Sequence record: MZ560701
Origin: Escherichia phage vB_EcoM_TU01
Strand: one strand, 5' to 3'
DNA length: 64,000 nucleotides
Part shown: positions 2,070 to 64,000 of the stretch, piece after piece
Position numbering within the stretch: position 1 is the first letter of the stretch
Layout of the letters: each line of letters starts with the position of its first letter
Translations under genes and position numbers: made by a program
The notes under the pieces: generated by a model
Database searches by the model: none
What the model was told of the DNA's origin: nothing
Seen by the model: the letters and a program-made list of their open reading frames with translations, nothing else

Positions 2070-2198
2070 ATGACTTATATTAATTTGACTTTAGTATCTG
2101 AACTTGCTGATCAACATTTAATCGCAGAATACCGTGAANTGCCNCGTGTTTTTGGTATAGTTCGTAAACATGTGGCAAAAATATTTACATTCAAATAA
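2070..2198 (+). pseudogene. truncated duplicate of denV 5' end (first ~36 codons, then divergent and stop)
   Basis: [35 protein letters not shown] then AKIFTFK-stop; parallels denV residues 1-36. Confidence 0.6.
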
Positions 2199-2341
2199 CA
2201 TGGGAACAACCTGGACCTCATGATTCTATGAGGGATTCCCGCCAACCTGTAATAAGGTCGAGCCCAAGTGCGGTAATGGGTAAATACAGAAATGGACAAT
2301 TCATGTGCCACGGAATGGCCCCCAACCTTAAGAGAAATAAT

Positions 2342-2881
2342 ATGAGAACATTTTTAACTGGACCTTATCTATCCCTGATGAATGCTTTTACACACCATTC
2401 TGATGCTAGAGTAGAAGAAATTTGTAAGAACGGTTATGTCCCACCATTTGAAGACGTACTCAAGCAGTACTGTACACTTCGTTTAGACGGTGGCAGACAA
2501 TCCGGTAAATCAACTGCAGTAACTAATTTTGCCGCTAATTGGCTGCATGATGGTGGAACAGTTATTGTTCTTTCTAATACTTCAGCTTATTCTAAAATTT
2601 CTGCTGGCAATATTAAAAAAGAATTTTCTCGTTATTCTAGCGATGATATTCGATTCCGTTTATTTACTGATTCTGTCCGTAGTTTTATTGGCAATGAAGG
2701 TTCTAAATTCCGTGGATTAACGCTTTCTCGTATTCTGTATATAATTGACGAGCCTATTAAAGCTCCTGATATGGATAAGATTTACAACATACATATTAAA
2801 ACAGTCCAACACTGTTGCAAAAGCAAATATTGCATCGGCGGTATTGCTCGTCCTCAATTTTTTGTGATTGGAATGCAATGA
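2342..2881 (+). CDS. P-loop NTPase (Walker A GGRQSGKST, Walker B-like ILYIIDE), unknown function
   Basis: Start could be earlier (ORF open from 2228); 2199-2341 compositionally atypical (GC-richer). Confidence 0.5.
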   Translation: MRTFLTGPYLSLMNAFTHHSDARVEEICKNGYVPPFEDVLKQYCTLRLDGGRQSGKSTAVTNFAANWLHDGGTVIVLSNTSAYSKISAGNIKKEFSRYSSDDIRFRLFTDSVRSFIGNEGSKFRGLTLSRILYIIDEPIKAPDMDKIYNIHIKTVQHCCKSKYCIGGIARPQFFVIGMQ

Positions 2882-3186
2882 TGACCACTATTGAAGTTTT
2901 TGAATATTGTTATAATAGCCCAGTATGCAATAAAAGGGCCCTTGTAGAAAATTATGAGATTTACCATTTTAAACCTAAACGATATCGTTTGACTAAAGGT
3001 CCATTCGCAGGTCAGCAGGTTCTTTGTACTGCTCCTAATGCACGGTTGATGACTAGTATTCCGCATTTCAAAATGGAATTTATTGATGGGCCATTTAAGG
3101 GATTAATCACTCAAAGTTTAATGGCGTTTAATTCCGTCCCATTTTTGATTAAAGAAAAAACTTGGATAAATTTATTTTCTAATTGA
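2878..3186 (+). CDS. hypothetical protein
   Basis: ATG overlaps upstream stop (ATGATGA). Confidence 0.4.
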   Translation: MMTTIEVFEYCYNSPVCNKRALVENYEIYHFKPKRYRLTKGPFAGQQVLCTAPNARLMTSIPHFKMEFIDGPFKGLITQSLMAFNSVPFLIKEKTWINLFSN

Positions 3187-3192
3187 GGTTAT

Positions 3193-3555
3193 ATGAAAGC
3201 ATATCAAATTCTTGAAGGTGCACATAAAGGCACTATTTATTTTGAAGACGGTGCTCAAGCCCGGATTATTGTCTCTAAGACTTTTAAAGAAGACGCTATT
3301 GTAGACCCAGAAATTTTCTACGGTTTGAATGCCCGTGAAATTGAAATTGAACATCAACCTAAAGTTAAAATTGAAGGTGGACAACATCTGAACGTTAACG
3401 TTCTGCGTCGTGAAACTCTGGAAGATGCAGTTAAGCATCCGGAAAAATATCCGCAGCTGACCATCCGTGTATCCGGTTATGCAGTTCGCTTTAACTCTCT
3501 GACTCCAGAACAGCAGCGCGACGTTATCGCTCGTACCTTTACTGAGAGTCTATAA
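3193..3555 (+). CDS. autonomous glycyl-radical cofactor (GrcA/YfiD-like)
   Basis: C-terminus [31 protein letters not shown] is the PFL/GrcA glycyl-radical signature (RVSGYAV). Confidence 0.88.
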
Positions 3556-3779
3556 TGGCTAAATTGATTATAGAAGGGTCTGAAGATGTTTTAAAATGTT
3601 TTGCCGCCTGGTTTAGTTGCTCAGGCGAGCAATCATTCATTGAAGCATTTAGAACGGGTGATATTACTGGAAAATATCCGTCAACCGATATCACTGTACG
3701 CGGATATGGTATTAATGAGCCTATCCAATTGGTCGAATACGACCTTGCCACCGATGAGGAAATTCCTTATGTCGATTGA
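3555..3779 (+). CDS. hypothetical protein
   Basis: TAATG overlap with GrcA stop. Confidence 0.45.
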   Translation: MAKLIIEGSEDVLKCFAAWFSCSGEQSFIEAFRTGDITGKYPSTDITVRGYGINEPIQLVEYDLATDEEIPYVD

Positions 3780-4035
3780 AGACATCAAAGGCTACAAGCC
3801 GCATACCGATGATAAAATCGGTAAAGTGAACGCTATTAAAGATGCTGAAGTCCGTCTTGGATTGATGTTTGATGCTCTGATTGAAGAAGCATATATCTTG
3901 AAAGAAAATGAAACAGAGCAACAAACCAAAGAAGATATGGATGCAGTGCAGGCTCTTAAGTATGCTAAGCAACATCTAAAAGAAGCTAGTATGTGGGCGT
4001 GTCGTGCAGTATTTCGACCAGAGGAAAAATACTAA
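3769..4035 (+). CDS. hypothetical protein
   Basis: In-frame ATG overlapping upstream stop; 3601 start of the tracked ORF rejected. Confidence 0.45.
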   Translation: MSIEDIKGYKPHTDDKIGKVNAIKDAEVRLGLMFDALIEEAYILKENETEQQTKEDMDAVQALKYAKQHLKEASMWACRAVFRPEEKY

Positions 4036-4250
4036 TGGCTTCTACTATTACTGGGTTATTGGACTTTCAAGAAAAGGTCAACAAAATTTGTAGTGAATAC
4101 TTAAAGTATCTTGAAGAAGACNTTGAAGATTGTAAGGAAGAAGGCGAAGAAGACTATGCTGACCAGCGTCGTCGCCAAATCGAAGAGATGAGGCATTTCG
4201 CCGATATGGTATCTAAAGAATCTTGGGCTTTAACTCCATTTTATCAATAA
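4035..4250 (+). CDS. hypothetical acidic protein
   Basis: TAATG overlap start. Confidence 0.4.
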   Translation: MASTITGLLDFQEKVNKICSEYLKYLEEDXEDCKEEGEEDYADQRRRQIEEMRHFADMVSKESWALTPFYQ

Positions 4251-4254
4251 AGTA

Positions 4255-4306
4255 GTTTACTTCTCCTCTAGTTGTGTTACTATAGACCTTGTCAACTAGA
4301 GGAGAA
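4255..4306 (+). promoter_or_regulatory. early promoter within stem-loop (PeSL-like) for regB
   Basis: GTTTAC 4255-4260, TACTAT 4278-4283, inverted repeat CCTCTAGTTG (4265-4274) / CAACTAGAGG (4293-4302). Confidence 0.6.
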
Positions 4307-4311
4307 ATCAA

Positions 4312-4770
4312 ATGACTATCAATTCAGACGTTTTTATCCGCCGTAATAAACTCCGTCGAATCTTTGAAACGGAGTTCCGCAAAATAAATGCCGGTATAAA
4401 AGATGCTGCAAAGTCTCTTGGACTACCAGGCTTTCATATCAAGTATTCTCAACATCTCTTAGATCGTGCCATCCAGAGAGAAATAGATGAGAACTACGTT
4501 TTTGAATTATTTCGTAAAGTAAAAAATCATGTTAAAGAAGTTGCAGAATTTTTATCAATGCCGGCACGTCCAGATGTTGATGAAGATTTTGTCGAAGGCG
4601 TCGAATATCGCCCAGGCCGTTTAGAAATAACTGACGGAAATCTTTGGTTAGGACTTACAGTTTGTCGCGAAAATCCAGCATTCAAAATGAAGACTCTTCA
4701 ATGCAGAATGGCTATTATTAACAGTAAACGACTACCAGGAAAAGCTTCTAAAGCAGTGATTAAAATCTAG
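4312..4770 (+). CDS. regB: RegB site-specific endoribonuclease
   Basis: MTINSDVFIRRNKLRR...HIKYSQHLLDRAIQREIDE...RLPGKASKAVIKI closely matches T4 RegB. Confidence 0.93.
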   Translation: MTINSDVFIRRNKLRRIFETEFRKINAGIKDAAKSLGLPGFHIKYSQHLLDRAIQREIDENYVFELFRKVKNHVKEVAEFLSMPARPDVDEDFVEGVEYRPGRLEITDGNLWLGLTVCRENPAFKMKTLQCRMAIINSKRLPGKASKAVIKI

Positions 4771-24894: not shown

Positions 24895-25452
24895 ATGACT
24901 GAACAAAAACCTAAAAATAACTATGTGAATAATAAAGAGCTTCTCGCCGCTATAATCGAGTGGAAAAAGGAGCTCTTAAATAATAAAGACCCAAACAAAA
25001 TTATTCGTCAGAATGATACCATCGGTTTAGCAATTATGCTTATCGCCGAAGGCCTGTCCAAACGTTTCAACTTTTCAGGATATACCCAGTCTTGGAAGCA
25101 GGAGATGATTGCAGATGGGATTGAAGCCTCTATTAAGGGACTTCATAATTTCGACGAAACTAAGTACAATAACCCACATGCATACATAACTCGAGCTTGT
25201 TTTAATGCTTTTGTCCAACGTATCAAAAAAGAACGTAAGGAAGTTGCAAAGAAATATAGTTACTTCGTTCATAATGTCTACGACAGTCATGACGATGATA
25301 TGGTAGCGTTGGTAGATGAAACGTTTATTCAAGACATCTACGATAAAATGACGCATTATGAAGAATCCGCTTATAAAGCTCCTGGGGCTGAAAAGAAGGA
25401 AGTTGTTAGCGATTCGCCTAGTTTGGATTTTTTATATGAGGATGACAATTGA
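24895..25452 (+). CDS. 55: late-transcription sigma factor gp55
   Basis: [88 protein letters not shown]... matches T4 gp55. Confidence 0.93.
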
Positions 25453-25651
25453 CATCTCTAACTACTTAGAAGAACCTTTTGACGAAGCAATCCCTTATTT
25501 GGTAAAACTGTTGGGTCGTGAATTTAAAATTAATTTTGACATCGACCCTTTGAACCCACATGACGTGTCATTTTCGATAAATGGGACTCCGGTTGAGTAT
25601 GAGTTCTGTATTGAAGAGGACGGACGTTTTTATTTTAATTTAATGAGATAA
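25436..25651 (+). CDS. hypothetical protein
   Basis: overlaps 3' end of gene 55 in another frame; start ambiguous (25436 or 25442). Confidence 0.35.
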
Positions 25652-25652
25652 T

Positions 25653-25976
25653 ATGACTACCGAGATTATTGAAAATAAAGAAGCAGAAGATGCAGTAGCT
25701 AAAATGCTACAAGAAATCCAAANGAAAAATGAAGCTGAAGCACGTAAAAAATCCGAAAAGATTCTTAAAAAGAATCGTTTTGAACTAAACCGTCTTTATG
25801 CTCATGCTCAAGAAGCAGCAATTCAAAACAACTTCGAAGCTTACGAATATGCTATTAAGAAATCTCGGGATATTCTACGACAACCATATAATGACAAGTT
25901 AATTAAAATCCAGTGGATTACTACTCGTCAGGCTATTGAGGACATCATTAATGGCGCTAGTTCAAACAAAGTTTAA
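25653..25976 (+). CDS. hypothetical protein
   Basis: ORF track. Confidence 0.45.
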   Translation: MTTEIIENKEAEDAVAKMLQEIQXKNEAEARKKSEKILKKNRFELNRLYAHAQEAAIQNNFEAYEYAIKKSRDILRQPYNDKLIKIQWITTRQAIEDIINGASSNKV

Positions 25977-26157
25977 ACGTCTGAAGCTGAACGCAGGGTT
26001 CACCCTTAAATTGGGAGGTCCTCTTTGTGTTAAAATTTCTGAAAAGGAATATCACGACGGTTCTATTACAGAAATTTGTCCGCCTATTGTAAAGGCAGAC
26101 CCAAAACAACTCGTGTGGGTTGATTCATTTCAAGTTAAGAAATGGTGGAAACGATGA
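25951..26157 (+). CDS. hypothetical protein
   Basis: ORF track, start refined. Confidence 0.35.
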   Translation: MALVQTKFKRLKLNAGFTLKLGGPLCVKISEKEYHDGSITEICPPIVKADPKQLVWVDSFQVKKWWKR

Positions 26158-26196
26158 GAGAAATCGATTTAGGNNTTTTCTGAGAGGTGCTTATGC

Positions 26197-26370
26197 ATGA
26201 CGAACGACCCGACCTCTGAAAATTTCGATAAAATCCGTAAAGGCAAAGCAGAAAGAATGAGACGTTTTAAAGAGTCTTATGATAAAGCTAAAGCCGAAGG
26301 AACTATTACATACAAGCCCATTCGATTTAAAAGTTCAAATGAGCCTCTGTACGGTGTACTATGTGGATAG
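26197..26370 (+). CDS. small hypothetical basic protein (57 aa)
   Basis: GAGAGGTG RBS; followed by strong terminator. Confidence 0.3.
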   Translation: MTNDPTSENFDKIRKGKAERMRRFKESYDKAKAEGTITYKPIRFKSSNEPLYGVLCG

Positions 26371-26395
26371 GAACTCTTCGGAGTTCCTTTTTTGC
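26369..26395 (+). terminator. rho-independent terminator AGGAACTC-TTCG-GAGTTCCT + TTTTTT
   Basis: 8-bp stem, UUCG loop, T-run. Confidence 0.75.
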
Positions 26396-26439
26396 TTTAT
26401 AAACGGATGATAGAATGAATTAACTAATGAGGAAATAAT

Positions 26440-27459
26440 ATGAAAATTTTAAATTTAGGTGATTGGCATTTAGGTGTTAAAGCCGATGATGAGTGGGTTC
26501 AATCCATTCAGTTGGATGGAATTAAACAAGCAATAGAATATTCTAAGAAAAANGGAATTACTACATGGATTCAATACGGCGATATTTTTGATGTGCGAAA
26601 AGCAATCACNCATAAAACTATGGANTTCGCNCGTGAAATAGTTCAAATGCTTGATGATGCTGGTATTACCCTACATACTGTNGTAGGAAACCATGATATG
26701 CACTTTAAAAATACTTTAACTCCAAATGCTTCTACTGAGCTTTTGGCTAAATATCCTAATGTTAAAGTATATGATAAGCCNACTACNGTAGATTTTGATG
26801 GATGTTTGATTGATTTAATTCCATGGATGTGTGAAGAAAATACAGGTGAAATCTTAGAGCACATCAAGACTTCTTCAGCAGCGTATTGTGTTGGGCACTG
26901 GGAACTGAATGGCTTTTATTTCTATAAAGGAATGAAGTCTCATGGGCTTGAACCTGATTTCTTAAAGACCTATAAACAAGTCTGGTCTGGCCACTTCCAC
27001 ACAATCTCTGAAGCTGCTAACGTCAAATATATTGGGACACCATGGACCCTTACTGCAGGCGATGAGAACGACCCTCGAGGATTCTGGGTATTTGACACTG
27101 ATGTTGAACGTATGGAATTTATTCCTAATGAAACAACATGGCATCGACGAATCACTTATCCGTTTAAAGGCAAAATCAATTATTCTGATTATACTAATCT
27201 AGCCGTACGTGTTATAGTATCAGAAATTGATTCAGAGTTGACTAAGTTTGAATCTGAACTTGAAAAAGTAGTTCACTCTCTTCGTATGGTTTCTAAAGTT
27301 GATAACAGTGTTGAATCTGATGATGACCAGGAAATCGAGATTAAATCACTTCAAGATATCATTAAAGAATATATTGACGCGATTCCAGATATCTCAGACG
27401 AAGACAGAGAAGCGCTGGTCAAATATTCCAACGAACTTTATATTGAGGCAACACAATGA
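26440..27459 (+). CDS. 47: recombination nuclease subunit gp47 (Mre11-like)
   Basis: MKILNLGDWHLGVKADDEW...GNHDMHFKN...GHWELNG...GHFH matches T4 gp47 phosphoesterase motifs. Confidence 0.95.
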   Translation: MKILNLGDWHLGVKADDEWVQSIQLDGIKQAIEYSKKXGITTWIQYGDIFDVRKAIXHKTMXFXREIVQMLDDAGITLHTXVGNHDMHFKNTLTPNASTELLAKYPNVKVYDKXTXVDFDGCLIDLIPWMCEENTGEILEHIKTSSAAYCVGHWELNGFYFYKGMKSHGLEPDFLKTYKQVWSGHFHTISEAANVKYIGTPWTLTAGDENDPRGFWVFDTDVERMEFIPNETTWHRRITYPFKGKINYSDYTNLAVRVIVSEIDSELTKFESELEKVVHSLRMVSKVDNSVESDDDQEIEIKSLQDIIKEYIDAIPDISDEDREALVKYSNELYIEATQ

Positions 27460-35832: not shown

Positions 35833-36468
35833 ATGAAAACTACTCCTATTACTATCGCTATTGACGCAATCATAAAACAAGCTTCTTCTTTGGCCGCTAT
35901 GGCCAAAGTAATTAGTCAAAACCCTGCTCGTTATAATGCTATTCTAGAAACTCTTCGACGCCCAGGACTTAGNAATTANGAAAGCCGAGTAATTATTACA
36001 GGTGTTGGTAAGAATGCTAATATTGCAACTAAAGCTTCTGAGACATTTGCTTCACTCGGTATCCCGAGTATGTACTTGAACACCGGGCATTATTCTCACG
36101 GTGATGCAGGATTCATTGCGCCTAATGATGTGTTGATTCATATTAGTCGTTCTGGTAAAACTGAAGAAATGATAGGCGTTGCTAAGCATCTTAAAATGAT
36201 TCGTCCGAACGTCAAACAGATTCTGTTGCATTGTAACCCAGACATTCCACAAGAAAATGAAGCCCTTTTTGATTACTCTTTCTGTACAGGCATCGCAGTA
36301 GAGGTTGATGAGAATTCTCTGGCTCCGACTATGTCCACTACATTGTTGTTAGCGCTTATCGATACTTTTGCTATCAACCTTTCGTCTGAGCGTGGATTTA
36401 CCTCTAATGACTTCCTTAAGTTCCACCCTGGTGGTGCACTAGGTGCCATGTTACGAGGCGAACAATGA
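35833..36468 (+). CDS. SIS-domain sugar-phosphate isomerase (KpsF/GutQ/KdsD-like, no CBS domains)
   Basis: VIITGVGKNANIATKASETFASLGIPSMYLNTGHYSHGDAGFIAPNDVLIHISRSGKTEEM is a canonical SIS domain. Confidence 0.8.
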   Translation: MKTTPITIAIDAIIKQASSLAAMAKVISQNPARYNAILETLRRPGLXNXESRVIITGVGKNANIATKASETFASLGIPSMYLNTGHYSHGDAGFIAPNDVLIHISRSGKTEEMIGVAKHLKMIRPNVKQILLHCNPDIPQENEALFDYSFCTGIAVEVDENSLAPTMSTTLLLALIDTFAINLSSERGFTSNDFLKFHPGGALGAMLRGEQ

Positions 36469-36608
36469 AAGCAATAACAATAGGACTTTTACTATTGATG
36501 CTTGTCATGACTATCTACTGGAGCTTAACGGCTCCAGTAATGATTCCAACACTTGTAATTGGATGGATTATGATTGGACTACAAGCAAAGTATGAATGCT
36601 TTAACTAG
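36465..36608 (+). CDS. 47-aa hydrophobic micropeptide (candidate)
   Basis: MKAITIGLLLLMLVMTIYWSLTAPVMIPTLVIGWIMIGLQ; ATGA overlap with SIS gene. Confidence 0.3.
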   Translation: MKAITIGLLLLMLVMTIYWSLTAPVMIPTLVIGWIMIGLQAKYECFN

Positions 36609-36649
36609 AATAGTGTACAATACTCCTACTTACCAATGAGGACNNCAAC

Positions 36650-38335
36650 ATGAAAAAAGCTGTTATTCTTGGTGCTGGACTGGCAACTCGTTTGTATCCA
36701 ATAACGCATCATATTCCTAAGGTGCTTGTTAACTATAAACAAGACACTATTCTGAGCAATTTGTATACAATTTATTCTGACCTTGGCGCAGATGAAATTA
36801 TTGTAGTAGTTCATTCAAAATTTGCTGAAACTGTTCGAGCTTATTGTGAGCAAGAAGGGTTCAATGTGACTATTCGTACAGTTGATGAAGCGTATGGTTC
36901 TGCTTATGCTCTTGCTAAATTACACAAAGATTTAGACGGCCATAATGTAATTGTTAACTGGTGTGATATTATTCCTGATTTTGGTTCATGGTCTTGGAAT
37001 GTTAACGCAATCTATGTTAAGGGTGATGAATGTCGATATAATTTCGACGGTGAAAATATCACTAACGTAGGTTCAACAGGTGGTAATGTTGTAGGAATTT
37101 ATCAGTTCAAAGACTGGGAATTCTATATGGGTTCTACTGATGAGGAAATTCATGAATACTGCAAAGGACGTGATTTCGTAGAATTCCTTTACGGCAGCGC
37201 ATTCAATAAATCAGAGCTTATGAATCTAATTGATTTAGGTGATATGCCTAAACTTGAAAAAGCTCATGAAGTTCGTGAACTTAATCGTAGTTTTAATGCA
37301 GTTGAAATTGGTGAAGAAACTGTAACTAAATTCGCATTAACCGAACAGGGTCGAGCTCTTCAGAAAGATGAGATTTCATGGTATCTTAAAGTGAAATCAG
37401 ATTCAGTTCCTCAGTTAGTTTCTGTTAATGAAAATAACTTTGAAATGGAACGCATTAAAGGTAAGCCGGCATTTGAATATATTAAATCCAAATCGAGTCT
37501 TGCTCGTCCACAAATTGTTGATGCAATTTTAGATGCACTGAAATTCAGCACAGACACTTATTTTGTAAGTCCTGAAACTGTTCGTCGTGATTTCACTAAA
37601 GAATTCTATACGAAAGTTATTGATCGTTGTGAAAGTATTCAACCATTGATTGATTCATTTGGTAAAATCACACATGTGAACTACACTAAGATTGGACGTC
37701 TGAAGCCAATGCTGAAACAAGCTTTAGAACACCTTATTCGTTATCATAACCGTTCTCAGGGACAGTACTCTGTTATTCATGGCGACCCGAACTTCAGTAA
37801 TACTATGATTACTGATAACGGCGAAGTCAAGTTTATCGACCCTCGTGGATATTTTGGTGAAACCAAGATTTACGGGCCAAAATTGTACGATGAAGCTAAA
37901 GTGCTTTATGCTGTTTCAGGTTATGATGAATTCAACGCTAATCCGACCTGGGGACAGTTTACTATTGACGAAACAACTTGTAATGTGACTATTAACATCA
38001 ATCCATTAATTTACAAATATGGAAAGCTGAGTTCGTTTAACGAGTATCATCATTTGGCCGTAGCAATTATCTGGATTGCATTAGGTGGTTATTTCAAGAA
38101 TAATCCACTTAAAGCGGTAGCCGCATATTATAAAGGTATGGAACTTCTGACTAAGCAATTACGTAACATGGGCCGTGTACTTCAAGACGGCTCTATTAGT
38201 TATGACGTAGCAGAACCTGTAACGGCTACTCTGATTACAAAAAATCCTGGTAAATGGGTACTAACTGATAAAGAAACTGGTGTTTCCTATCGTCCAATCG
38301 GTGGCGATATCACTCATCAATGGGAACGAATCTAA
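36650..38335 (+). CDS. bifunctional sugar-1-phosphate nucleotidyltransferase (N-term, LicC/RmlA-like) + APH/choline-kinase-fold kinase (C-term)
   Basis: N-term MKKAVILGAGLATRLYPIT...KVLV (G-x-G-T-R-L-x-P); C-term SVIHGDPNFSNTMITDNGEVKFIDPRGYFG (H-G-D-x4-N and I-D-x-R). Confidence 0.8.
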   Translation: MKKAVILGAGLATRLYPITHHIPKVLVNYKQDTILSNLYTIYSDLGADEIIVVVHSKFAETVRAYCEQEGFNVTIRTVDEAYGSAYALAKLHKDLDGHNVIVNWCDIIPDFGSWSWNVNAIYVKGDECRYNFDGENITNVGSTGGNVVGIYQFKDWEFYMGSTDEEIHEYCKGRDFVEFLYGSAFNKSELMNLIDLGDMPKLEKAHEVRELNRSFNAVEIGEETVTKFALTEQGRALQKDEISWYLKVKSDSVPQLVSVNENNFEMERIKGKPAFEYIKSKSSLARPQIVDAILDALKFSTDTYFVSPETVRRDFTKEFYTKVIDRCESIQPLIDSFGKITHVNYTKIGRLKPMLKQALEHLIRYHNRSQGQYSVIHGDPNFSNTMITDNGEVKFIDPRGYFGETKIYGPKLYDEAKVLYAVSGYDEFNANPTWGQFTIDETTCNVTININPLIYKYGKLSSFNEYHHLAVAIIWIALGGYFKNNPLKAVAAYYKGMELLTKQLRNMGRVLQDGSISYDVAEPVTATLITKNPGKWVLTDKETGVSYRPIGGDITHQWERI

Positions 38336-38721
38336 TGCACCGTGTAGAAAACATGCTTAATCTTTGTTTTGATGTCGATGATTGTATAACAGAGTGGAAT
38401 AACAATCGTGATTACGTGAACTTCAAGCCGGACGTCGAAATGGTGAATGCCATTAATGCCCTGTATGATGCAGGGCACACAATAACGCTTTACACTGCTC
38501 GCGGTATGAAGTCAGTAGGTCCTGGTCGTATAGCAATTGACATTCTCCCAAGTCTTATTCAGAACTTGGCAAACATTGGCTTGAAGTACCATAATTTGCT
38601 AACACATAAACCAGTATATGATTGGATTATCGACGACAAAGCTATGCGTCCTGACGAATTCAAAGCTCTTATGAATAAAGGCGAATTCGAAACATTTAAA
38701 TCATATAAACCGAATCTATAA
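38335..38721 (+). CDS. small HAD-superfamily phosphatase (KdsC-like size)
   Basis: LCFDVDDCIT (motif I DxDx[TV]), ITLYTARG (motif II), YDWIIDDK (motif IV); start 38335 or 38353. Confidence 0.7.
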   Translation: MHRVENMLNLCFDVDDCITEWNNNRDYVNFKPDVEMVNAINALYDAGHTITLYTARGMKSVGPGRIAIDILPSLIQNLANIGLKYHNLLTHKPVYDWIIDDKAMRPDEFKALMNKGEFETFKSYKPNL

Positions 38722-38775: not shown

Positions 38776-39936
38776 ATGAATACTTTTAAAATCGGAACGA
38801 ATTTTGATTTAGCTCTTCTTGATAAAATCGTAGAGCTCAATAAAACTTATCCTAATAGCTTGATAAACGAAGTATATGGCTCTACAAGAGAAATGGCTTT
38901 TGTAGCAGCCAGACCTGATTTTAGGCTTCCTGACGTTGACAAAAAGATGTTAGAAGATTACGTTAAACGTTGTAACGAATTAGGTATTTGCTTTAACTAT
39001 ACACTCAACACGATAAATCCTGGTTCAAAAAGAGAACTAGTTGAGTGGAAGAAGAAAGCTATTCAGGACTATGTTCAGTATCTTTGGTCAATAGGCGTAT
39101 GGCGTATTACTATCGCTAACCCTGTTGTTATGGAAATTGTTCGTGAAGTCAATAAAGACATTGAGATTGAAGTTTCAACAATTTTACATGTCGATGCTGT
39201 AACTCAAATCAAATACTTACATGACCAGTATAATATCAAAAAGGTCTGCTGTGGAATTCATAAGAACCGTTCAGTTTCTTTCCTGAAGCGTGCAGCAGAG
39301 TTTTGCAATAAGAACAATATAATATTTGAAGTTCTTGTAAATGAGTTCTGTTCTAATGCTGGTAAAGGGTATACAACACATTGTAGCTATCGTGACTCTT
39401 GCTATATTTTCCATAGTACTGATGTTACAGCTGATGATGCTAAATCCTTAAATGGATATCCTATGCAGCACTGTATTAAAGCTCGTGATACAGACCCATT
39501 TAACTGGTTGAGAACTCGTTTTGTTCGTCCACAAGATTTGAAACTTTATAATGATATTGGTATCACTCAATTTAAAGTTTCGGGACGTACAGGTAGCACC
39601 GACTACATTTTGAAAGTTCTTGAAGCTTATGCTTCTGAAAAGTTTGAAGGTAATTTGTTGGAATTGTGGAAGCCTTTAGAGACCATTTTCACTCTTGAAA
39701 ATGAGACCGAGTTTTCACATACGGTAAATATTGAAACCTCTTTGTTAGACGGCTTTTTAGAAAAAAGGTGGTTCAGACATCCGGATTTCGATTGTGCTAA
39801 TGAAATCTGCGGGACGACGTGTACATATTGTGAAAGATATTATAAACGTCAGTTATCTAAAAATGGGTTATCAGAAAATTCTATATCTATTATTGATATA
39901 ACTAACTCTGACGACGCTTTGAGGTACCCAGAATGA
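38776..39936 (+). CDS. Cys-rich enzyme of unknown function (possible U32-like TIM barrel; C-terminal CGTTCTYC Cx3Cx2C cluster)
   Basis: 386 aa; FEVLVNEFCSNAGKGYTTHCSYRDSC and CANEICGTTCTYC; family assignment tentative. Confidence 0.5.
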   Translation: MNTFKIGTNFDLALLDKIVELNKTYPNSLINEVYGSTREMAFVAARPDFRLPDVDKKMLEDYVKRCNELGICFNYTLNTINPGSKRELVEWKKKAIQDYVQYLWSIGVWRITIANPVVMEIVREVNKDIEIEVSTILHVDAVTQIKYLHDQYNIKKVCCGIHKNRSVSFLKRAAEFCNKNNIIFEVLVNEFCSNAGKGYTTHCSYRDSCYIFHSTDVTADDAKSLNGYPMQHCIKARDTDPFNWLRTRFVRPQDLKLYNDIGITQFKVSGRTGSTDYILKVLEAYASEKFEGNLLELWKPLETIFTLENETEFSHTVNIETSLLDGFLEKRWFRHPDFDCANEICGTTCTYCERYYKRQLSKNGLSENSISIIDITNSDDALRYPE

Positions 39937-40215: not shown

Positions 40216-40932
40216 ATGGGAAAACATAACACAATGAAATATATTAAAGCCGCAGATTTTCAATCCGCATTTAAAGCTGTCAATCGTGAAATTTTAGAAA
40301 ACCCAGAATTCGTAACTGATTCTCGTATTGGACGTTGTAATGAAATTGGGTCTATGACAGTAGTTGTTGACACTCCATCATCATTCAAAATGACCGACCC
40401 ACGTATTAACCGCATCTCTTATGAATATGCCGAAGATTTCTGGAAATTTATGATTTCTGGCGGNACTGANGCAGAAGAAGCATTTAAGGCATATCCTAAT
40501 GTCGCTAAATTTATTTCTAAACCAAAATCAGACGCTTTGCCTGCGAACTTCAACACTTTCTATGGTCCTCGCATTGCGGCCCAATTACCAGCTCTTCTAA
40601 AAGAACTTAAAGAGAAGCCTAACTCTCGAAGAGTTGTGTTCCAAATTCTTGAAAGTTCTGATCAGGCTTTGCTTGATTCGGACGAAACGCTTGAATATCC
40701 ATGTACTGACTCAGTGACTTATTATATTCGTGATGGTAAGCTTTATACCCACTGTCATATGCGTTCCCAGAACTGTGCTGTTGTTATGCAGTTGGATTTT
40801 TATCTCCAAGGAAAATTACTTCATTATATCGCTAAAGAATGCGGTGTAGAAGTTGGTGATTATACTCATACCATGGTAAGTGCCCATGTGTTTGAACGTG
40901 ATTTTGATTATGTTAAAGGATTCCTTGACTAA
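40216..40932 (+). CDS. 42: dCMP hydroxymethylase (thymidylate-synthase fold)
   Basis: 238 aa; CTDSVTYYIRDGKLYTHCHMRSQNCAVVMQLDF parallels T4 gp42 catalytic-Cys region; between 43 and uvsX. Confidence 0.85.
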   Translation: MGKHNTMKYIKAADFQSAFKAVNREILENPEFVTDSRIGRCNEIGSMTVVVDTPSSFKMTDPRINRISYEYAEDFWKFMISGXTXAEEAFKAYPNVAKFISKPKSDALPANFNTFYGPRIAAQLPALLKELKEKPNSRRVVFQILESSDQALLDSDETLEYPCTDSVTYYIRDGKLYTHCHMRSQNCAVVMQLDFYLQGKLLHYIAKECGVEVGDYTHTMVSAHVFERDFDYVKGFLD

Positions 40933-41831
40933 TGGCTATTTTCCGCGTACCTATCTTGAGTATGCGGTCTTATGAAACCGGACAGTATGCTATCCTTAAG
41001 GATGGCAACTTCCAACTTCATTTGCACCGTGCTAATCCGGGTGATGTGATTACATATCCACGTAATGCATCTGATATTAAAGAATGTGAACGTCTTTTCC
41101 CAGAATTTAAGTTTGTTCCATTATGGTATAAAGATAACGCGTATAACACTCGTAAATATTTCTGGTCTGAAAATGAATTTGTGGTTGATTCATTAATTGC
41201 TTATTATGATTGTGATTTTCTAATCACAGATATCACTGGATATGACGGAGCTTTTGATGTAGAATTCAATTTCAATATCACTGCAGACCCTAATAAACCA
41301 CGTTTTTATATTGACGAATTCTTAAAAACCGACATGTTGTCGGTTAATCGTTCACTTCAAACTACTGTGTTGAATGAACGTCAAAAAGAAGTGCTGGTTA
41401 ACGCTGGTGCAGATGGTAATAAGATTATCGTAACCCAGAAAGTTATACGTCCTTCCATCATGCAGCGTCTTGTAGGTGATTTGGCTCCTATTCATCTAGA
41501 TGGTATTTTTCATCCATTTCGAATTAGTGACCCGTGCTATCGTTTTGAACAAGTGGTTGAATGTGCAATTCAATTAGGTCAACCGCTTTATGTAACCGAT
41601 CCAAATAATAGTTTCGATAGAAATAAGTATCCTGAAGAAGCGCTGATTCGAATTTTTAAACCAACTAAAACTGAGTACTATCAAATTCTTAAAGGACGGC
41701 CGAAGATTCAATATTTCGAAAATCCTGAAGAAGTATTCCATCCAGGTCTTGGCGAGTTCATCTACTTTAATGCTTTAATTTCTTCACCGTATAATATACC
41801 TAAATACGAAGATGTCGTAATCGAGGAATAA
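40932..41831 (+). CDS. hypothetical protein at the T4 beta-glucosyltransferase locus (no resemblance to T4 beta-gt)
   Basis: 299 aa; TAATG overlap with gene 42; no motif I could assign. Confidence 0.5.
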   Translation: MAIFRVPILSMRSYETGQYAILKDGNFQLHLHRANPGDVITYPRNASDIKECERLFPEFKFVPLWYKDNAYNTRKYFWSENEFVVDSLIAYYDCDFLITDITGYDGAFDVEFNFNITADPNKPRFYIDEFLKTDMLSVNRSLQTTVLNERQKEVLVNAGADGNKIIVTQKVIRPSIMQRLVGDLAPIHLDGIFHPFRISDPCYRFEQVVECAIQLGQPLYVTDPNNSFDRNKYPEEALIRIFKPTKTEYYQILKGRPKIQYFENPEEVFHPGLGEFIYFNALISSPYNIPKYEDVVIEE

Positions 41832-41832
41832 A

Positions 41833-42381
41833 ATGGCTAAAATTATTTTAGTAGATGGCCCGGATAATGCTGGTAAAACAACTTTCATTAATGATATAAT
41901 GGAAATTAGTGAAAGATATGTAAAGATTGATTTCCCTAAACGAACAGTTGATGGACGTTTCGATGTTAAGTCTCGAAATGAAGTTGGCTGTTTCGAAACG
42001 ATGTTGAATTATTTAGACCCTACTAAGATTTATCTGTTAGACCGTGGATATATTAGTAACTGGGTTTATGGACGTATTCGACAAGATGCGGACTCGGTTC
42101 TTGACGTTTATGAACAGGATTATGTTCGTCTTTGCCAAAACCATGATGTGTTCACAATTATTTTAACACGTAACGAAATGACTGAAAGTTTTGAAGACGA
42201 CCTTATTACTTTGTCTTCATTCGGTTTTAATACAGTCATTTCACATTTTGAAGAGTTTGCAATTCATAACAAAATCCAAACGTATCAATTACTTAATCAT
42301 GATGGTGCTAACAAAGTTATAGGATTTAATGCAAGCGAACGTAATTATTTGATTACAGAAATTATCAAATGGGCTCGTTAA
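41833..42381 (+). CDS. P-loop nucleoside/nucleotide-kinase-like protein
   Basis: MAKIILVDGPDNAGKTTFI (Walker A), LLDRGYISNWVYG (DR motif typical of dNK/dNMP kinases). Confidence 0.55.
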   Translation: MAKIILVDGPDNAGKTTFINDIMEISERYVKIDFPKRTVDGRFDVKSRNEVGCFETMLNYLDPTKIYLLDRGYISNWVYGRIRQDADSVLDVYEQDYVRLCQNHDVFTIILTRNEMTESFEDDLITLSSFGFNTVISHFEEFAIHNKIQTYQLLNHDGANKVIGFNASERNYLITEIIKWAR

Positions 42382-60260: not shown

Positions 60261-60683
60261 ATGGCTTTTAAAGGTTTTGAAGTTGGTAAGAAATATCGTA
60301 TTATCAAAGGACAGGAAGATAATTTCTTGAGACTTCTTAATACGACTGGTAAACGTCTTAATACTAATCTGCATACTNCTTTATTGTCNAAAGATTTTAT
60401 TGTAGAAGAGATGATTGGTTACGGCGTTTCGATTATTGCCGNNNNNNNNNNNNNNNNNNNNNNNNNNNTCATTAGTATGCAAGGTGATATTCTGCTTTAT
60501 GGTGCAGAATTTAAATTCTTTGAAGAAGTTCCGGAACCAGATACAGCTGTCGATTTCAAAAAAGGCTCTGTAGAATTTGTTGATGGTTCGGTGATCGTAT
60601 CAGGCGATGTGGTCATTACAGTTAAAAGTGAACAAGGGCGTTTGGCTGCAATTGATGCACTTCAGAAAATTAAATTTAAATAA
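60261..60683 (+). CDS. hypothetical protein (contains N-masked block)
   Basis: ORF track. Confidence 0.45.
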   Translation: MAFKGFEVGKKYRIIKGQEDNFLRLLNTTGKRLNTNLHTXLLXKDFIVEEMIGYGVSIIAXXXXXXXXXXISMQGDILLYGAEFKFFEEVPEPDTAVDFKKGSVEFVDGSVIVSGDVVITVKSEQGRLAAIDALQKIKFK

Positions 60684-60702
60684 GGGCTTCGGCCCTTTTT
60701 GC
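60684..60702 (+). terminator. rho-independent terminator GGGC-TTCG-GCCC + TTTTT
   Basis: GC stem, UUCG loop, T-run after stop. Confidence 0.65.
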
Positions 60703-60746
60703 TTTAGATTTCGGATGATAGAATACCTTCATAACGAGGAGACAAC

Positions 60747-62564
60747 ATGATTAAAAATGAAATTAAGGTATTGTCAGATGTAGAACATATTAAGAAACGT
60801 AGTGGTATGTATATTGGTTCTTCGGCTAAAGAAGCNCANGAGCGTTTTTTGTTTGGTAAATATCAACAAGTTGAATATGTTCCTGGTCTGGTTAAATTAA
60901 TCGATGAGATTATTGACAACTCGGTTGATGAAGCTATTCGTACATCATTTAAGTTTGCAAATAAAATTGATGTGCAAATTAAAAATAATCAAGTTTCGGT
61001 GGAAGATAACGGACGTGGTATTCCTCAAGGTTTAGTTACCGACCAAACAGGTGAACAAATTCCTGGTCCTGTAGCAGCCTGGACTATTCCAAAGGCTGGT
61101 GGTAACTTTGGTGATGACTCTGAACGCAAGACTGGTGGTATGAANGGCGTCGGGAGTAGTTTAACTAATATCTTCTCTACGTTGTTTACAGGCATCACGT
61201 CNGATGGCGAAAATGAAATCACTGTTAACTGTTCAAACGGAATGGAAAACAAATCNTGGTCTTCTAAGAAATCTAAAGGTAAAGGCACTAAAGTAATCTT
61301 CACTCCTGATTTCTCTTCNTTTGAAGAGCATAATTTATCTCAAATTTATTTAGATATTACTTTAGACCGACTTCAAACATTGGCAGTCGTTTATCCTGAT
61401 ATCAAGTTCACATTTAATGGTAAAAAGGTTGATGGTAATTTTAAACGATTTGCTAAACAATTTGGTGAAGATAACATCATTCAAGAAAATGATAAAGTCT
61501 CTATAGCNTTCACAACATCACCAGANGGCTTCCGTCATTTAACTTATGTGAATAACATCCATACTAAAAATGGNGGTCATCATGTTGAATGTGTAATGGA
61601 TGATATCTGCGAACATCTTTTGCCTGGNATTAAAAAGAAATATAAGGGTATTGAAGTCACTAAAGCTCGTGTTAAAGAATGTCTCACAATGTTGATGTTT
61701 ATTAGAGACATGAGCAACATGCGTTTTGATTCTCAGACTAAAGAACGTTTAACGTCAACGTATGGTGATATTCGTAATCATATCCAATTAGATGCTAAGA
61801 AAATTGCTCAGGCACTTCTTAAAAANGAAGCCTTGATTATGCCTATTGTTGAAGCAGCATTAGCTCGTAAATTGGCNGCAGAAAAGGCTGCAGAAACTAA
61901 AGCAGCTAAAAAGGCAACTAAAGCTAAGGTTCATAAGCATATTAAAGCTAACCAATGNGGTAAAGANGCAGATACGACATTGTTCTTAACAGAAGGTGAT
62001 TCGGCAATTGGTTATCTCATTGATGTTCGTGACCGTGAACTACACGGTGGATTCCCANTACGTGGTAAGGTAATGAATAGCTGGGGTATGTCATATGCTG
62101 ATATGATGAAGAACAAAGAGCTCTTTGATATCTGTGCTATCACAGGTCTTATTCTTGGTGAAAAGGCAGAGAATACGAACTATCGTAATATTGCAATTAT
62201 GACCGATGCCGATCATGACGGTCTTGGAAGTATTTATCCGGCTTTGCTTGCTTTCTTTAGTAATTGGCCTGAATTGTTTGAACAAGGACGTATTCGCTTT
62301 GTTAAAACGCCTGTAATTATTGCACAAATTGGCAAAACTCAAAAATGGTTTTATACTGTAGCTGAGTATGAAGAAGCTAAAGATACACTGCCTAAGCATA
62401 GTATTCGATACATCAAGGGATTGGGCTCCCTTGAAAAGTCAGAATATCGTGAAATGATTCAGAACCCTGTGTACGACGTAGTTAAACTTCCTGAAAATTG
62501 GAAAGAACTCTTTGAAATGTTGTTGGGTGANGATTCAGAACTTCGTAAAGAATGGATGTCCTAA
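60747..62564 (+). CDS. 39: DNA topoisomerase II large subunit, single uninterrupted 39+60 ORF
   Basis: 605 aa; GHKL ATPase N-terminus plus C-terminal region that T4 encodes separately as gene 60. Confidence 0.92.
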   Translation: MIKNEIKVLSDVEHIKKRSGMYIGSSAKEXXERFLFGKYQQVEYVPGLVKLIDEIIDNSVDEAIRTSFKFANKIDVQIKNNQVSVEDNGRGIPQGLVTDQTGEQIPGPVAAWTIPKAGGNFGDDSERKTGGMXGVGSSLTNIFSTLFTGITXDGENEITVNCSNGMENKXWSSKKSKGKGTKVIFTPDFSXFEEHNLSQIYLDITLDRLQTLAVVYPDIKFTFNGKKVDGNFKRFAKQFGEDNIIQENDKVSIXFTTSPXGFRHLTYVNNIHTKNXGHHVECVMDDICEHLLPXIKKKYKGIEVTKARVKECLTMLMFIRDMSNMRFDSQTKERLTSTYGDIRNHIQLDAKKIAQALLKXEALIMPIVEAALARKLXAEKAAETKAAKKATKAKVHKHIKANQXGKXADTTLFLTEGDSAIGYLIDVRDRELHGGFPXRGKVMNSWGMSYADMMKNKELFDICAITGLILGEKAENTNYRNIAIMTDADHDGLGSIYPALLAFFSNWPELFEQGRIRFVKTPVIIAQIGKTQKWFYTVAEYEEAKDTLPKHSIRYIKGLGSLEKSEYREMIQNPVYDVVKLPENWKELFEMLLGXDSELRKEWMS

Positions 62565-62606
62565 GCTCCTTCGGGAGCTTCATTTTAATTTTAATAAGGC
62601 TTAATT

Positions 62607-63707
62607 ATGAAAGTTATGTTTATCCCATCTCGNGCAGTCCCATTTAATCCTGACCGTGTACAAGGTGGNCTTGAAGCAGTACATTTAAATGTGTTGAAAT
62701 ATCTTGTGTCCATCGGTGCTGATATTGATTATATCGGCTTTGATAATGACACGTTTGGTGACTGGAAAGTTAAACACCATCCTGTTGGTCATCTGACTAA
62801 ATTCAGTCTAGGTATGAGTTATACTATGGCTCGTAAGATTGTTGAACTAGCNGGCATCCATGAATACGATTTTGTTGTTACTATGGAACCGACTAAACTA
62901 ACCGTTCAGGCAATTAAAGACGCAGGTCTCTCTAAAGTTCATAAGAATTTTATGGCAACACCATTTGAACCGGTATCTCGTGGCATTGTTCAAATTTGGG
63001 ACCANACTATTCAAATTCATAAGAATGGTGGTAAGAGTTATGCTCCTACTAAAGCCTTCCGTGAATTTGAACGCAAATATTGTTATATGACTTCAGGTCT
63101 GACTGACAAAATTGATTATGATTATTGGCGAGCAAATCCGTTGTTTGAAGCCGAAGATTATCCGGTTATTTGTTTGANTGAGAAACCNGAAGTTCTTCCG
63201 GCNACTGATNTGATTATTAGTGCACAACGTTATGACACTAAAATGCGTCGTACTGATGTTGCTCTTGAAGCGATTAAAGCACTAGGCGAAAATGGTGTAG
63301 GATACTGTCCTAGTAAATGGGCACCACCAGCTAAATATCCTGTTATTATTGATGCTCCACACAGTGAAATCATGGAACGTCTTAAAACAGCTAAAGCACT
63401 TATTAATACGTGTCCTGACACAGGTACNGTAGAGAATAGTTCTATTGAAGCCATCTCTAAAGGTGTCCCTGTAATCCAGTTAGTTTTTAAGGATTATCCT
63501 CATGCGACATTCGAATACGACCCAGATACTGTGCGTGTAGAAATTGATTCCTCTACTCCTAAGAAAGAAGTAGTTGCGCTTTACACAAAAGCTGTATTAG
63601 AATTCACTGACACATACGAAGCTCGAGTTAAACGNGCTGAAGCAGTATGGAAGAAGTATAATCGAGATGCAGTTGTTGCGATGTGGGATAAAATCTTCAC
63701 AGCGTAA
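62607..63707 (+). CDS. GT-B-fold glycosyltransferase (GT4-like), candidate DNA sugar transferase
   Basis: N-terminal MKVMFIPS..PFNPDRVQGGLEAVHLNVLKYL and C-terminal ENSSIEAISKGVPVI resemble GT4 motifs; N-containing. Confidence 0.6.
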   Translation: MKVMFIPSXAVPFNPDRVQGXLEAVHLNVLKYLVSIGADIDYIGFDNDTFGDWKVKHHPVGHLTKFSLGMSYTMARKIVELXGIHEYDFVVTMEPTKLTVQAIKDAGLSKVHKNFMATPFEPVSRGIVQIWDXTIQIHKNGGKSYAPTKAFREFERKYCYMTSGLTDKIDYDYWRANPLFEAEDYPVICLXEKXEVLPXTDXIISAQRYDTKMRRTDVALEAIKALGENGVGYCPSKWAPPAKYPVIIDAPHSEIMERLKTAKALINTCPDTGXVENSSIEAISKGVPVIQLVFKDYPHATFEYDPDTVRVEIDSSTPKKEVVALYTKAVLEFTDTYEARVKXAEAVWKKYNRDAVVAMWDKIFTA

Positions 63708-63799
63708 ATCCTGAATNGCCTGAGGCACTATTACACANAAGATGATAGATTATATGGTCTTTANTAATAGTGCCCTAGGAATCTACTGAAGAGAATATT

Positions 63800-64000
63800 A
63801 TGAGAACATATAACGTGGACTTGGANCTTTTTGATAAAGCGGTGCTCCGGGAATTCCGGCTTATCCAAAGATTTTTTGANATCGAGTCAGCAGAGTCCTT
63901 TAAAGAACGCTTTAAAGAAATTCGATATAAAATACAAACCGATACAGCTACTAAAGAAGAACTTCTTGAAGTAGCAGAAATTTTTAAACGTAACTTGTGA
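63800..64000 (+). CDS. small hypothetical protein; stop coincides with window end
   Basis: ORF track; AGAGAATATT upstream. Confidence 0.4.
   Translation: MRTYNVDLXLFDKAVLREFRLIQRFFXIESAESFKERFKEIRYKIQTDTATKEELLEVAEIFKRNL

Follow-up and report, generated by a model that had tools for sequence, protein, structure and literature searches.

Which sugar does the glycosyltransferase encoded directly after topoisomerase gene 39 in Escherichia phage vB_EcoM_TU01 transfer, and onto which acceptor? The stretch analyzed here (the window) comprises 64,000 nucleotides of sequence record MZ560701, and the gene in question occupies positions 62607-63707. The initial annotation of the window had described its product as a GT4-like GT-B glycosyltransferase, had noted that the interval between genes 55 and 47, which in T4 holds the alpha-glucosyltransferase gene, contains only small open reading frames (ORFs), and had proposed the enzyme as the best candidate for placing the sugar of a biosynthetic module on DNA containing 5-hydroxymethylcytosine (hmC). 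Our analysis keeps the protein within a DNA-glycosylation pathway and revises its place in it. The product is probably the secondary DNA arabinosyltransferase of Mosigvirus phages, which would use uridine diphosphate-arabinofuranose (UDP-Araf) to add a second, beta-(1->3)-linked arabinose to DNA that is already arabinosylated.

Counterparts and fold of the 366-residue protein

62607-63707, + strand: GT-B glycosyltransferase of 366 residues, orthologous to both RB69 ORF003c/gp3 and the HY126 glycosyltransferase; put forward as the second DNA arabinosyltransferase, which would extend the sugar chain

The reading frame has an ATG start, a TAA stop and an AAGG Shine-Dalgarno sequence 8-11 nucleotides upstream, and the chance of 366 open codons, computed from base composition, is approximately 1e-12. 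The window contains 322 masked bases, 10 of them in this ORF. RB69 ORF003c/gp3 (NP_861693), also 366 residues long, is identical to the window protein at 353 of 356 unmasked residues (353/366 overall), with the substitutions K56N, V230A, and T327I, and its gene has the same neighbors, gene 39+60 upstream and rIIA.1 downstream. The protein is maintained at 93-97% identity in about 155 Mosigvirus records, masked residues being counted as mismatches. A second close counterpart is the HY126 glycosyltransferase, which shares 97-98% identity with the window protein (phmmer E=1e-248 to PDB entry 9iqz) and from which nothing of substance sets it apart. The HY126 protein has been crystallized free (PDB 9IQZ) and with UDP (9IR0), both entries released on 2025-07-16, and a Foldseek search with the window model matched 9ir0, “HY126 glycosyltransferase with UDP”.

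The predicted structure of the window protein has a GT-B fold of two Rossmann-like domains with a predicted local distance difference test (pLDDT) score of 91. Together with the crystal structure of the HY126 protein, this bears out the GT-B assignment of the initial annotation. The description as GT4-like holds at the level of fold, as the nearest structural neighbors are GT4 enzymes, but does not extend to sequence profiles. The classification by glycosyltransferase-family hidden Markov models that the initial annotation had called for gave no Pfam family at E<=10 and no NCBIfam match, and none of 11 family members matched Glycos_transf_1 (PF00534); a single weak match, to PF20706 “GT4-conflict”, was found (E=0.0028). 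Retaining GT-B enzymes of the GT4 type (sucrose-phosphate synthase 6KIH, BshA, PimA, WaaG, and MshA) share 10-15% identity with the protein. In its conserved segment TGTVE276NSSIE281AISKGVPV two glutamates are spaced by four residues, as against seven in the C-terminal E-x7-E motif of GT4 enzymes. A profile search of the PDB recovered 9iqz only, and PHROG 8302, annotated as “unknown function”, matches residues 1-366 (E=2e-214). The family is very small: it accounts for 10 clusters in 5.8 billion proteins (four in a first search), 11 HMMER matches among 1.84 billion representatives read exhaustively, and seven loci in IMG/VR. There are thus no bacterial relatives to inform its specificity.

The two HY126 crystal structures probably belong to He et al. 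2026 (Nat Chem Biol), and the gene called “Aat” by Mahler et al. 2025 (Cell Host Microbe) is probably the Mosigvirus 366-residue gene. Deletion of “Aat” in phage Bas46 is reported to be viable and to sensitize the phage to a defense system, which would suit an extension step that the phage can do without. The RB69 gene has a longer history. Using HHpred, Thomas et al. 2018 singled out ORF003c as the likely RB69 arabinosyltransferase; Lee et al. 2026 (NAR) designate gp3 “beta-arabinosyltransferase 2” and propose an accessory, chain-extending role for it, and the paper on the Durham collection likewise proposes that the gene lying between the topoisomerase gene and rIIA encodes the second arabinosyltransferase. 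Attention was drawn to the gene in 2018, crystals of a near-identical protein followed by 2025, and the second-arabinosyltransferase role was proposed in 2025-2026. It is a known gene that has been described, crystallized and functionally assigned in the literature, and its recognition in the window is a correct rediscovery.

The sugar module and the acceptor base

The sugar to be transferred would be supplied by a module that lies elsewhere in the window and that carries a GT-B enzyme of its own:

35833-36468, + strand: SIS-domain arabinose-5-phosphate isomerase homologue (RB69 gp55), first step of donor synthesis; identified by Pfam SIS and from Lee et al.
36650-38335, + strand: bifunctional sugar kinase / UDP-sugar pyrophosphorylase (RB69 gp52:53, HY126 AfhE) that makes UDP-arabinofuranose; identified by Pfam NTP_transferase, kinase-like matches, NCBIfam and the literature
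38320-38721, + strand: HAD-like sugar phosphatase (RB69 gp51, HY126 AfhF); identified by an NCBIfam capsule biosynthesis phosphatase match (E=3e-13) and from the literature
38776-39936, + strand: Peptidase_U32-family protein of 386 residues; Pfam E=7e-11, with a weak UbiU-like match
40216-40932, + strand: thymidylate-synthase homologue with the signature (RSQN) of a synthase of 5-hydroxy-deoxycytidine monophosphate (5-hydroxy-dCMP); identified by Pfam Thymidylat_synt, by alignment, and by PDB entries 9iqc/9ir2/9iqu (E=5e-160)
40932-41831, + strand: 299-residue GT-B glycosyltransferase (RB69 gp46:47 orthologue) in the position of the T4 beta-glucosyltransferase gene; proposed first, base-proximal arabinosyltransferase
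41833-42381, + strand: nucleotide-kinase-like protein (RB69 gp45 orthologue); an ORF with a weak match to deoxythymidine monophosphate (dTMP) kinase, also in Lee et al. Table 1

The thymidylate-synthase homologue indicates the nature of the modified base. In an alignment that included RB69 gp48 and DLP3 gp80, its motif is RSQN, against RSCD169 in E. coli ThyA and RSND in T4 gp42. Lee et al. describe this asparagine as the signature of 5-hydroxy-dCMP synthases, which are flavin-dependent; RB69 gp48, with the same asparagine, is a demonstrated 5-hydroxy-dCMP synthase, and in RB69-type DNA arabinose is ether-linked to 5-hydroxycytosine. The window homologue is also near-identical to the crystallized HY126 enzyme. 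Given this signature, the phage DNA should hold derivatives of 5-hydroxycytosine and hmC is not expected, so the acceptor named in the initial annotation, hmC-DNA, has to be replaced.

The 299-residue protein is encoded directly 3' of the thymidylate-synthase homologue, in the slot of the T4 beta-glucosyltransferase gene. It has no Pfam or NCBIfam match and no solved relative, and a profile-profile comparison of its family with the 366-residue family gave a probability of 0.5%, indicating no detectable paralogy. The proposal that the 366-residue protein is the best candidate for placing the module's sugar on DNA is thereby upheld as to the pathway and weakened as to the step, since the module has its own GT-B enzyme and the base is not hmC.

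We propose that the module would make UDP-D-arabinofuranose from ribulose-5-phosphate and that the thymidylate-synthase homologue would make 5-hydroxy-dCMP. The 299-residue enzyme would then attach the first arabinose to O5 of cytosine in alpha linkage, and the 366-residue enzyme would add a second arabinofuranose, in beta-(1->3) linkage, onto the first sugar in phage DNA, using UDP-Araf. That the 366-residue enzyme binds a UDP-sugar is suggested by the UDP seen in the crystal of the 98% identical HY126 protein, and the module at 35833-38721 points to UDP-D-arabinofuranose as that sugar. RB69 DNA contains beta-D-Araf-(1->3)-alpha-D-Araf-O5-dC, which equals the expected product of such a pathway. 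The thicker sugar coat would widen protection against host nucleases and other defenses.

Some further features of the module were observed. In the RB69 record AY303349 (24597-25497 and 28094-29780) two of these genes are broken up, as ORF052c/053c and ORF046c/047c; in the window each is one uninterrupted ORF, of 561 residues (36650-38335) and 299 residues (40932-41831), in agreement with the published view that the RB69 splits are sequencing errors. The kinase-like gene at 41833-42381 lies right after the 299-residue gene, even though RB69-type phages also have a general deoxynucleoside monophosphate kinase (RB69 gp159, Lee et al. Table 1), and the substrate of its product may be 5-hydroxy-dCMP or a nucleotide that already bears arabinose. 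In the U32 family, RlhA is required for 5-hydroxycytidine in 23S rRNA and TrhP for 5-hydroxyuridine in tRNA (PMC5727448, PMC6599085), and the U32 protein at 38776-39936 might represent an alternative, oxygen-independent route to 5-hydroxycytosine.

Which enzyme adds which arabinose

The assignment of the second linkage to the 366-residue enzyme draws on its phyletic pattern, on synteny, and on the assay of its homologues from Acinetobacter phage DLP3, all of which suggest an enzyme acting after the first sugar is in place. The 366-residue family was found in 211 phage records, comprising Mosigvirus, the T4-like phages of Acinetobacter (two copies each), and one record named Tegunavirus, whose homologue is below 60% identity. 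The 299-residue enzyme is far more widespread, with 348 phage records across many genera and 110 clusters in the protein database. Its hosts include Escherichia, Shigella, Acinetobacter, Klebsiella, Serratia, Enterobacter, Proteus, Yersinia, Edwardsiella, Pectobacterium, Erwinia, Providencia, and Shewanella, and it is present in every arabinosylating phage lineage. Every phage group with the 366-residue family also carries the 299-residue enzyme and the 5-hydroxycytosine arabinosylation module, and the window holds all of these co-occurring parts: the 5-hydroxy-dCMP synthase homologue, the UDP-arabinose module, and the 299-residue glycosyltransferase. The narrow distribution of the one enzyme against the wide distribution of the other fits an accessory, chain-extending role for the 366-residue protein. 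The number of glycosyltransferases also matches the number of arabinoses reported:

Shewanella phage Thanatos: one glycosyltransferase; one arabinose reported
RB69, NP, Bas46/47: two glycosyltransferases; mono- plus di-arabinose reported
DLP3: three glycosyltransferases; tri-arabinose reported

The same distribution bears on the possibility that the 366-residue enzyme is instead the primary transferase, attaching the initial arabinose to modified cytosine in DNA while the 299-residue protein performs, for example, sugar-nucleotide chemistry. This is how the initial annotation read the gene and how RB69 ORF003c was originally proposed to act in 2018. The Thanatos, Serratia, Klebsiella, Yersinia, and Proteus phages carry the pathway and the 299-residue protein but no 366-residue homologue at E<=1e-3; among the Yersinia phages, six records with the 299-residue enzyme gave no 366-residue homologue. 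The DLP3 members of the family are inactive on 5-hydroxycytosine DNA and active on arabinosylated DNA, Bas46 is reported to survive the loss of “Aat”, and the form of the proposal in which hmC is the acceptor is countered by the identity of the base. A primary role for the 366-residue enzyme is accordingly improbable in our estimation.

DLP3 gp76 and gp77 are 41% and 44% identical to the window protein over their full length and share its conserved motifs. Supplied with UDP-Araf, they add a third arabinose, beta-(1->5)-linked, to RB69 DNA, and they are active only together, even on di-arabinosylated DNA; individual glycosyltransferases showed no activity on bare 5-hydroxycytosine DNA (Lee et al. 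2026). These assays introduce another possibility, that the 366-residue enzyme is an obligate complex partner of the 299-residue enzyme and that the pair yields both mono- and di-arabinosyl products. Tri-arabinosylation by DLP3 needed gp76 and gp77 jointly, no single glycosyltransferase being active, and RB69-type DNA always mixes mono- and di-arabinosyl cytosine, both of which are in keeping with a complex. Against it, the two Mosigvirus genes lie about 21 kilobases (kb) apart in different transcription units, the 299-residue enzyme occurs alone in many lineages, and the HY126 protein is listed in the PDB by its own name, both without ligand and with UDP. We think it unlikely, to much the same degree, that the two enzymes work as such a complex.

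The activity results also bear on where glycosylation begins. The lack of any observed glycosyltransferase activity on bare 5-hydroxycytosine DNA (Lee et al. 2026) supports a scheme in which the 299-residue enzyme arabinosylates 5-hydroxy-dCMP, the kinase at 41833-42381 phosphorylates the sugar-bearing nucleotide for incorporation, and the 366-residue enzyme is the sole transferase acting on polymerized DNA. We give this scheme a small but appreciable chance; if it were true, the second sugar would be the earliest one that these phages add at the level of DNA.

The structural neighbors PimA, WaaG, and BshA raise the question of whether the 366-residue enzyme might, like them, glycosylate an acceptor other than DNA, such as a protein or a glycolipid of the host envelope. 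The family is confined to T4-like phages, always with the 5-hydroxycytosine arabinosylation module, and in the Acinetobacter phages it lies inside that module; the DLP3 homologues act on DNA. The isoelectric point is uninformative here, as the T4 alpha-glucosyltransferase, a DNA-modifying enzyme, is equally acidic (pI 6.1). We regard a non-DNA acceptor as highly improbable.

Returning to the 366-residue protein as the second arabinosyltransferase, several observations weigh against this assignment. The first arabinosylation has yet to be reconstituted, and the two enzymes are placed in order by distribution and synteny. The nearest folds are those of retaining GT4 enzymes, while a beta linkage formed from UDP-alpha-D-Araf would need inversion. 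The requirement for a pair of enzymes in DLP3 may mean that a model of one enzyme for each linkage is incomplete. As for the 299-residue enzyme, Thanatos TH1_063 (MT457552.1 55465-56355), which is 47% identical to the window 299-residue protein, is reported to have formed UDP-xylose from xylose-1-phosphate and uridine triphosphate (UTP) in vitro (PMC12838424), an activity that is unexpected for the fold and conflicts with the assignment of the 299-residue enzyme as the first arabinosyltransferase.

The 366-residue family has been found at three T4-like loci: between 39 and rIIA.1 in Mosigvirus; inside the module in the Acinetobacter phages (DLP3 2143-4438); and after a dsbA-like gene. The last of these is represented by a metagenomic homologue on a T4-like contig (JGI contig 3040-4224), where the dsbA-like gene is followed by the homologue downstream of a DNA ligase gene; a second metagenomic homologue is on a short contig. 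The gene behaves as a movable accessory gene.

In Mosigvirus the 366-residue gene would help to set the sugar coat on cytosine at one arabinose or two. The thickness of this coat influences which restriction enzymes, clustered regularly interspaced short palindromic repeats (CRISPR) systems, and modification-dependent nucleases are effective against the phage, and Mosigvirus phages are common candidates for phage therapy. The corrected reading of the window has two glycosyltransferases rather than one, 5-hydroxycytosine rather than hmC, and a module enzyme in the slot of a T4 glucosyltransferase.

Gene surroundings and comparison with T4, DLP3, and T2/T6

The immediate surroundings of the glycosyltransferase gene are as follows:

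60747-62564, + strand: fusion of genes 39 and 60, encoding the large subunit of topoisomerase II (605 residues); Pfam HATPase_c, DNA_gyraseB, and TOPRIM_C, and annotation of related phages
62563-62580, + strand: UUCG-tetraloop hairpin between the stop codon of gene 39 and the beginning of the glycosyltransferase gene; from a scan for terminator-like elements and the sequence
63800-64000, + strand: rIIA.1 homologue of 66 residues, the downstream neighbor; Pfam T4_RIIA1 E=3e-28 and RB69 annotation

The glycosyltransferase ORF begins 42 nucleotides past the stop codon of gene 39+60, which agrees with its earlier placement directly after the topoisomerase gene, and the last base of the window is the end of the rIIA.1 stop codon. 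The region 60700-64000 is matched at 98% nucleotide identity, with masked bases counted as mismatches, by about 150 complete genomes of Mosigvirus (RB69-like T-even phages); RB69 is absent from the 25 best nucleotide matches. Around the glycosyltransferase gene the window and RB69 coordinates sum to 66227, so the window runs in reverse complement to the left arm of an RB69-type genome. The initial annotation had asked whether this region is the start of the RB69 genome: it corresponds to the left end of an RB69-type genome in reverse complement, but it is not RB69 itself, from which the glycosyltransferase differs at three residues.

The hairpin at 62563-62580 is not followed by any promoter-like site seen in our scan, and the glycosyltransferase gene is therefore probably co-transcribed with gene 39. 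Within the gene 39 transcript it is probably expressed before or during replication; the promoter scan itself returned sites no more numerous than in shuffled sequence and is hence uninformative on timing. UUCG-tetraloop hairpins stand right behind stop codons at 62563-62580, 60682-60697, and 26372-26389 (+ strand). Behind the two that precede genes 39 and 47 come TTTGCTTTA, resembling a T4 MotA box, and a -10-like element, neither of which follows the glycosyltransferase hairpin. The 92-nucleotide spacer between the glycosyltransferase stop and rIIA.1 contains inverted-repeat arms, aggcactatta ... taatagtgcc, that enclose a loop of about 34 nucleotides (63723-63778, + strand).

A comparison with T4 begins with the interval in which that phage carries its alpha-glucosyltransferase gene:

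25453-26439, + strand: interval between genes 55 and 47, 987 nucleotides; holds only homologues of a-gt.5, a-gt.4, a-gt.3, and a-gt.2, with T4 alpha-gt, mobB, and 47.1 absent

The interval is bounded by gene 55 (24895-25452), with 91% identity to T4 gp55, and by gene 47, which begins at 26440. Its four ORFs correspond by length and order to RB69 a-gt.5, a-gt.4, a-gt.3, and a-gt.2, and the two that were compared with T4, a-gt.4 and a-gt.2, share 58% and 76% identity with their T4 counterparts. In T4 the gap between a-gt.2 and 47 holds mobB, a-gt, and 47.1; the window has none of these, and only 69 nucleotides, holding the hairpin and the MotA-box-like TTTGCTTTA, separate a-gt.2 from gene 47. 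Searches of the whole 64-kb window by tblastn with T4 a-gt and b-gt gave a best E value of 1.7 (best for a-gt, E=3). The initial annotation was thus right that the interval has small ORFs and no alpha-glucosyltransferase gene. A degraded a-gt remnant between 55 and 47 was also considered and rejected, as only 69 nucleotides are unassigned and tblastn found no match.

The T4 alpha-glucosyltransferase (a-gt, PDB 1Y6F) resembles the 366-residue protein in fold and not in sequence (best BLASTP E=7). Its gene lies between 55 and 47, whereas that of the window glycosyltransferase lies between 39 and rIIA.1, and its acceptor is the hydroxymethyl group of hmC, whereas that proposed for the 366-residue enzyme is a sugar on 5-hydroxycytosine. 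The T4 beta-glucosyltransferase has no sequence similarity (no BLASTP match) or close fold similarity to the 366-residue protein.

DLP3 offers the closest parallel outside Mosigvirus, with a different arrangement. Its gp76 and gp77 genes adjoin those of the module kinase, the first glycosyltransferase, and the 5-hydroxy-dCMP synthase, and, unlike the window module, the DLP3 module has no U32 gene. DLP3 thus has two paralogues inside its module, while in Mosigvirus a single copy lies 21 kb from the module and the chain ends at two sugars.

In function, the nearest analog is the beta-alpha-glucosyltransferase of T2 and T6, which converts alpha-glucosyl-hmC to gentiobiosyl-hmC. Like the enzyme proposed here, it acts as the second transferase of its phage and lengthens the sugar already carried by a modified cytosine in DNA. 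The T2/T6 enzyme differs in that it uses UDP-glucose as donor, acts on hmC, and forms a beta-1,6 linkage.

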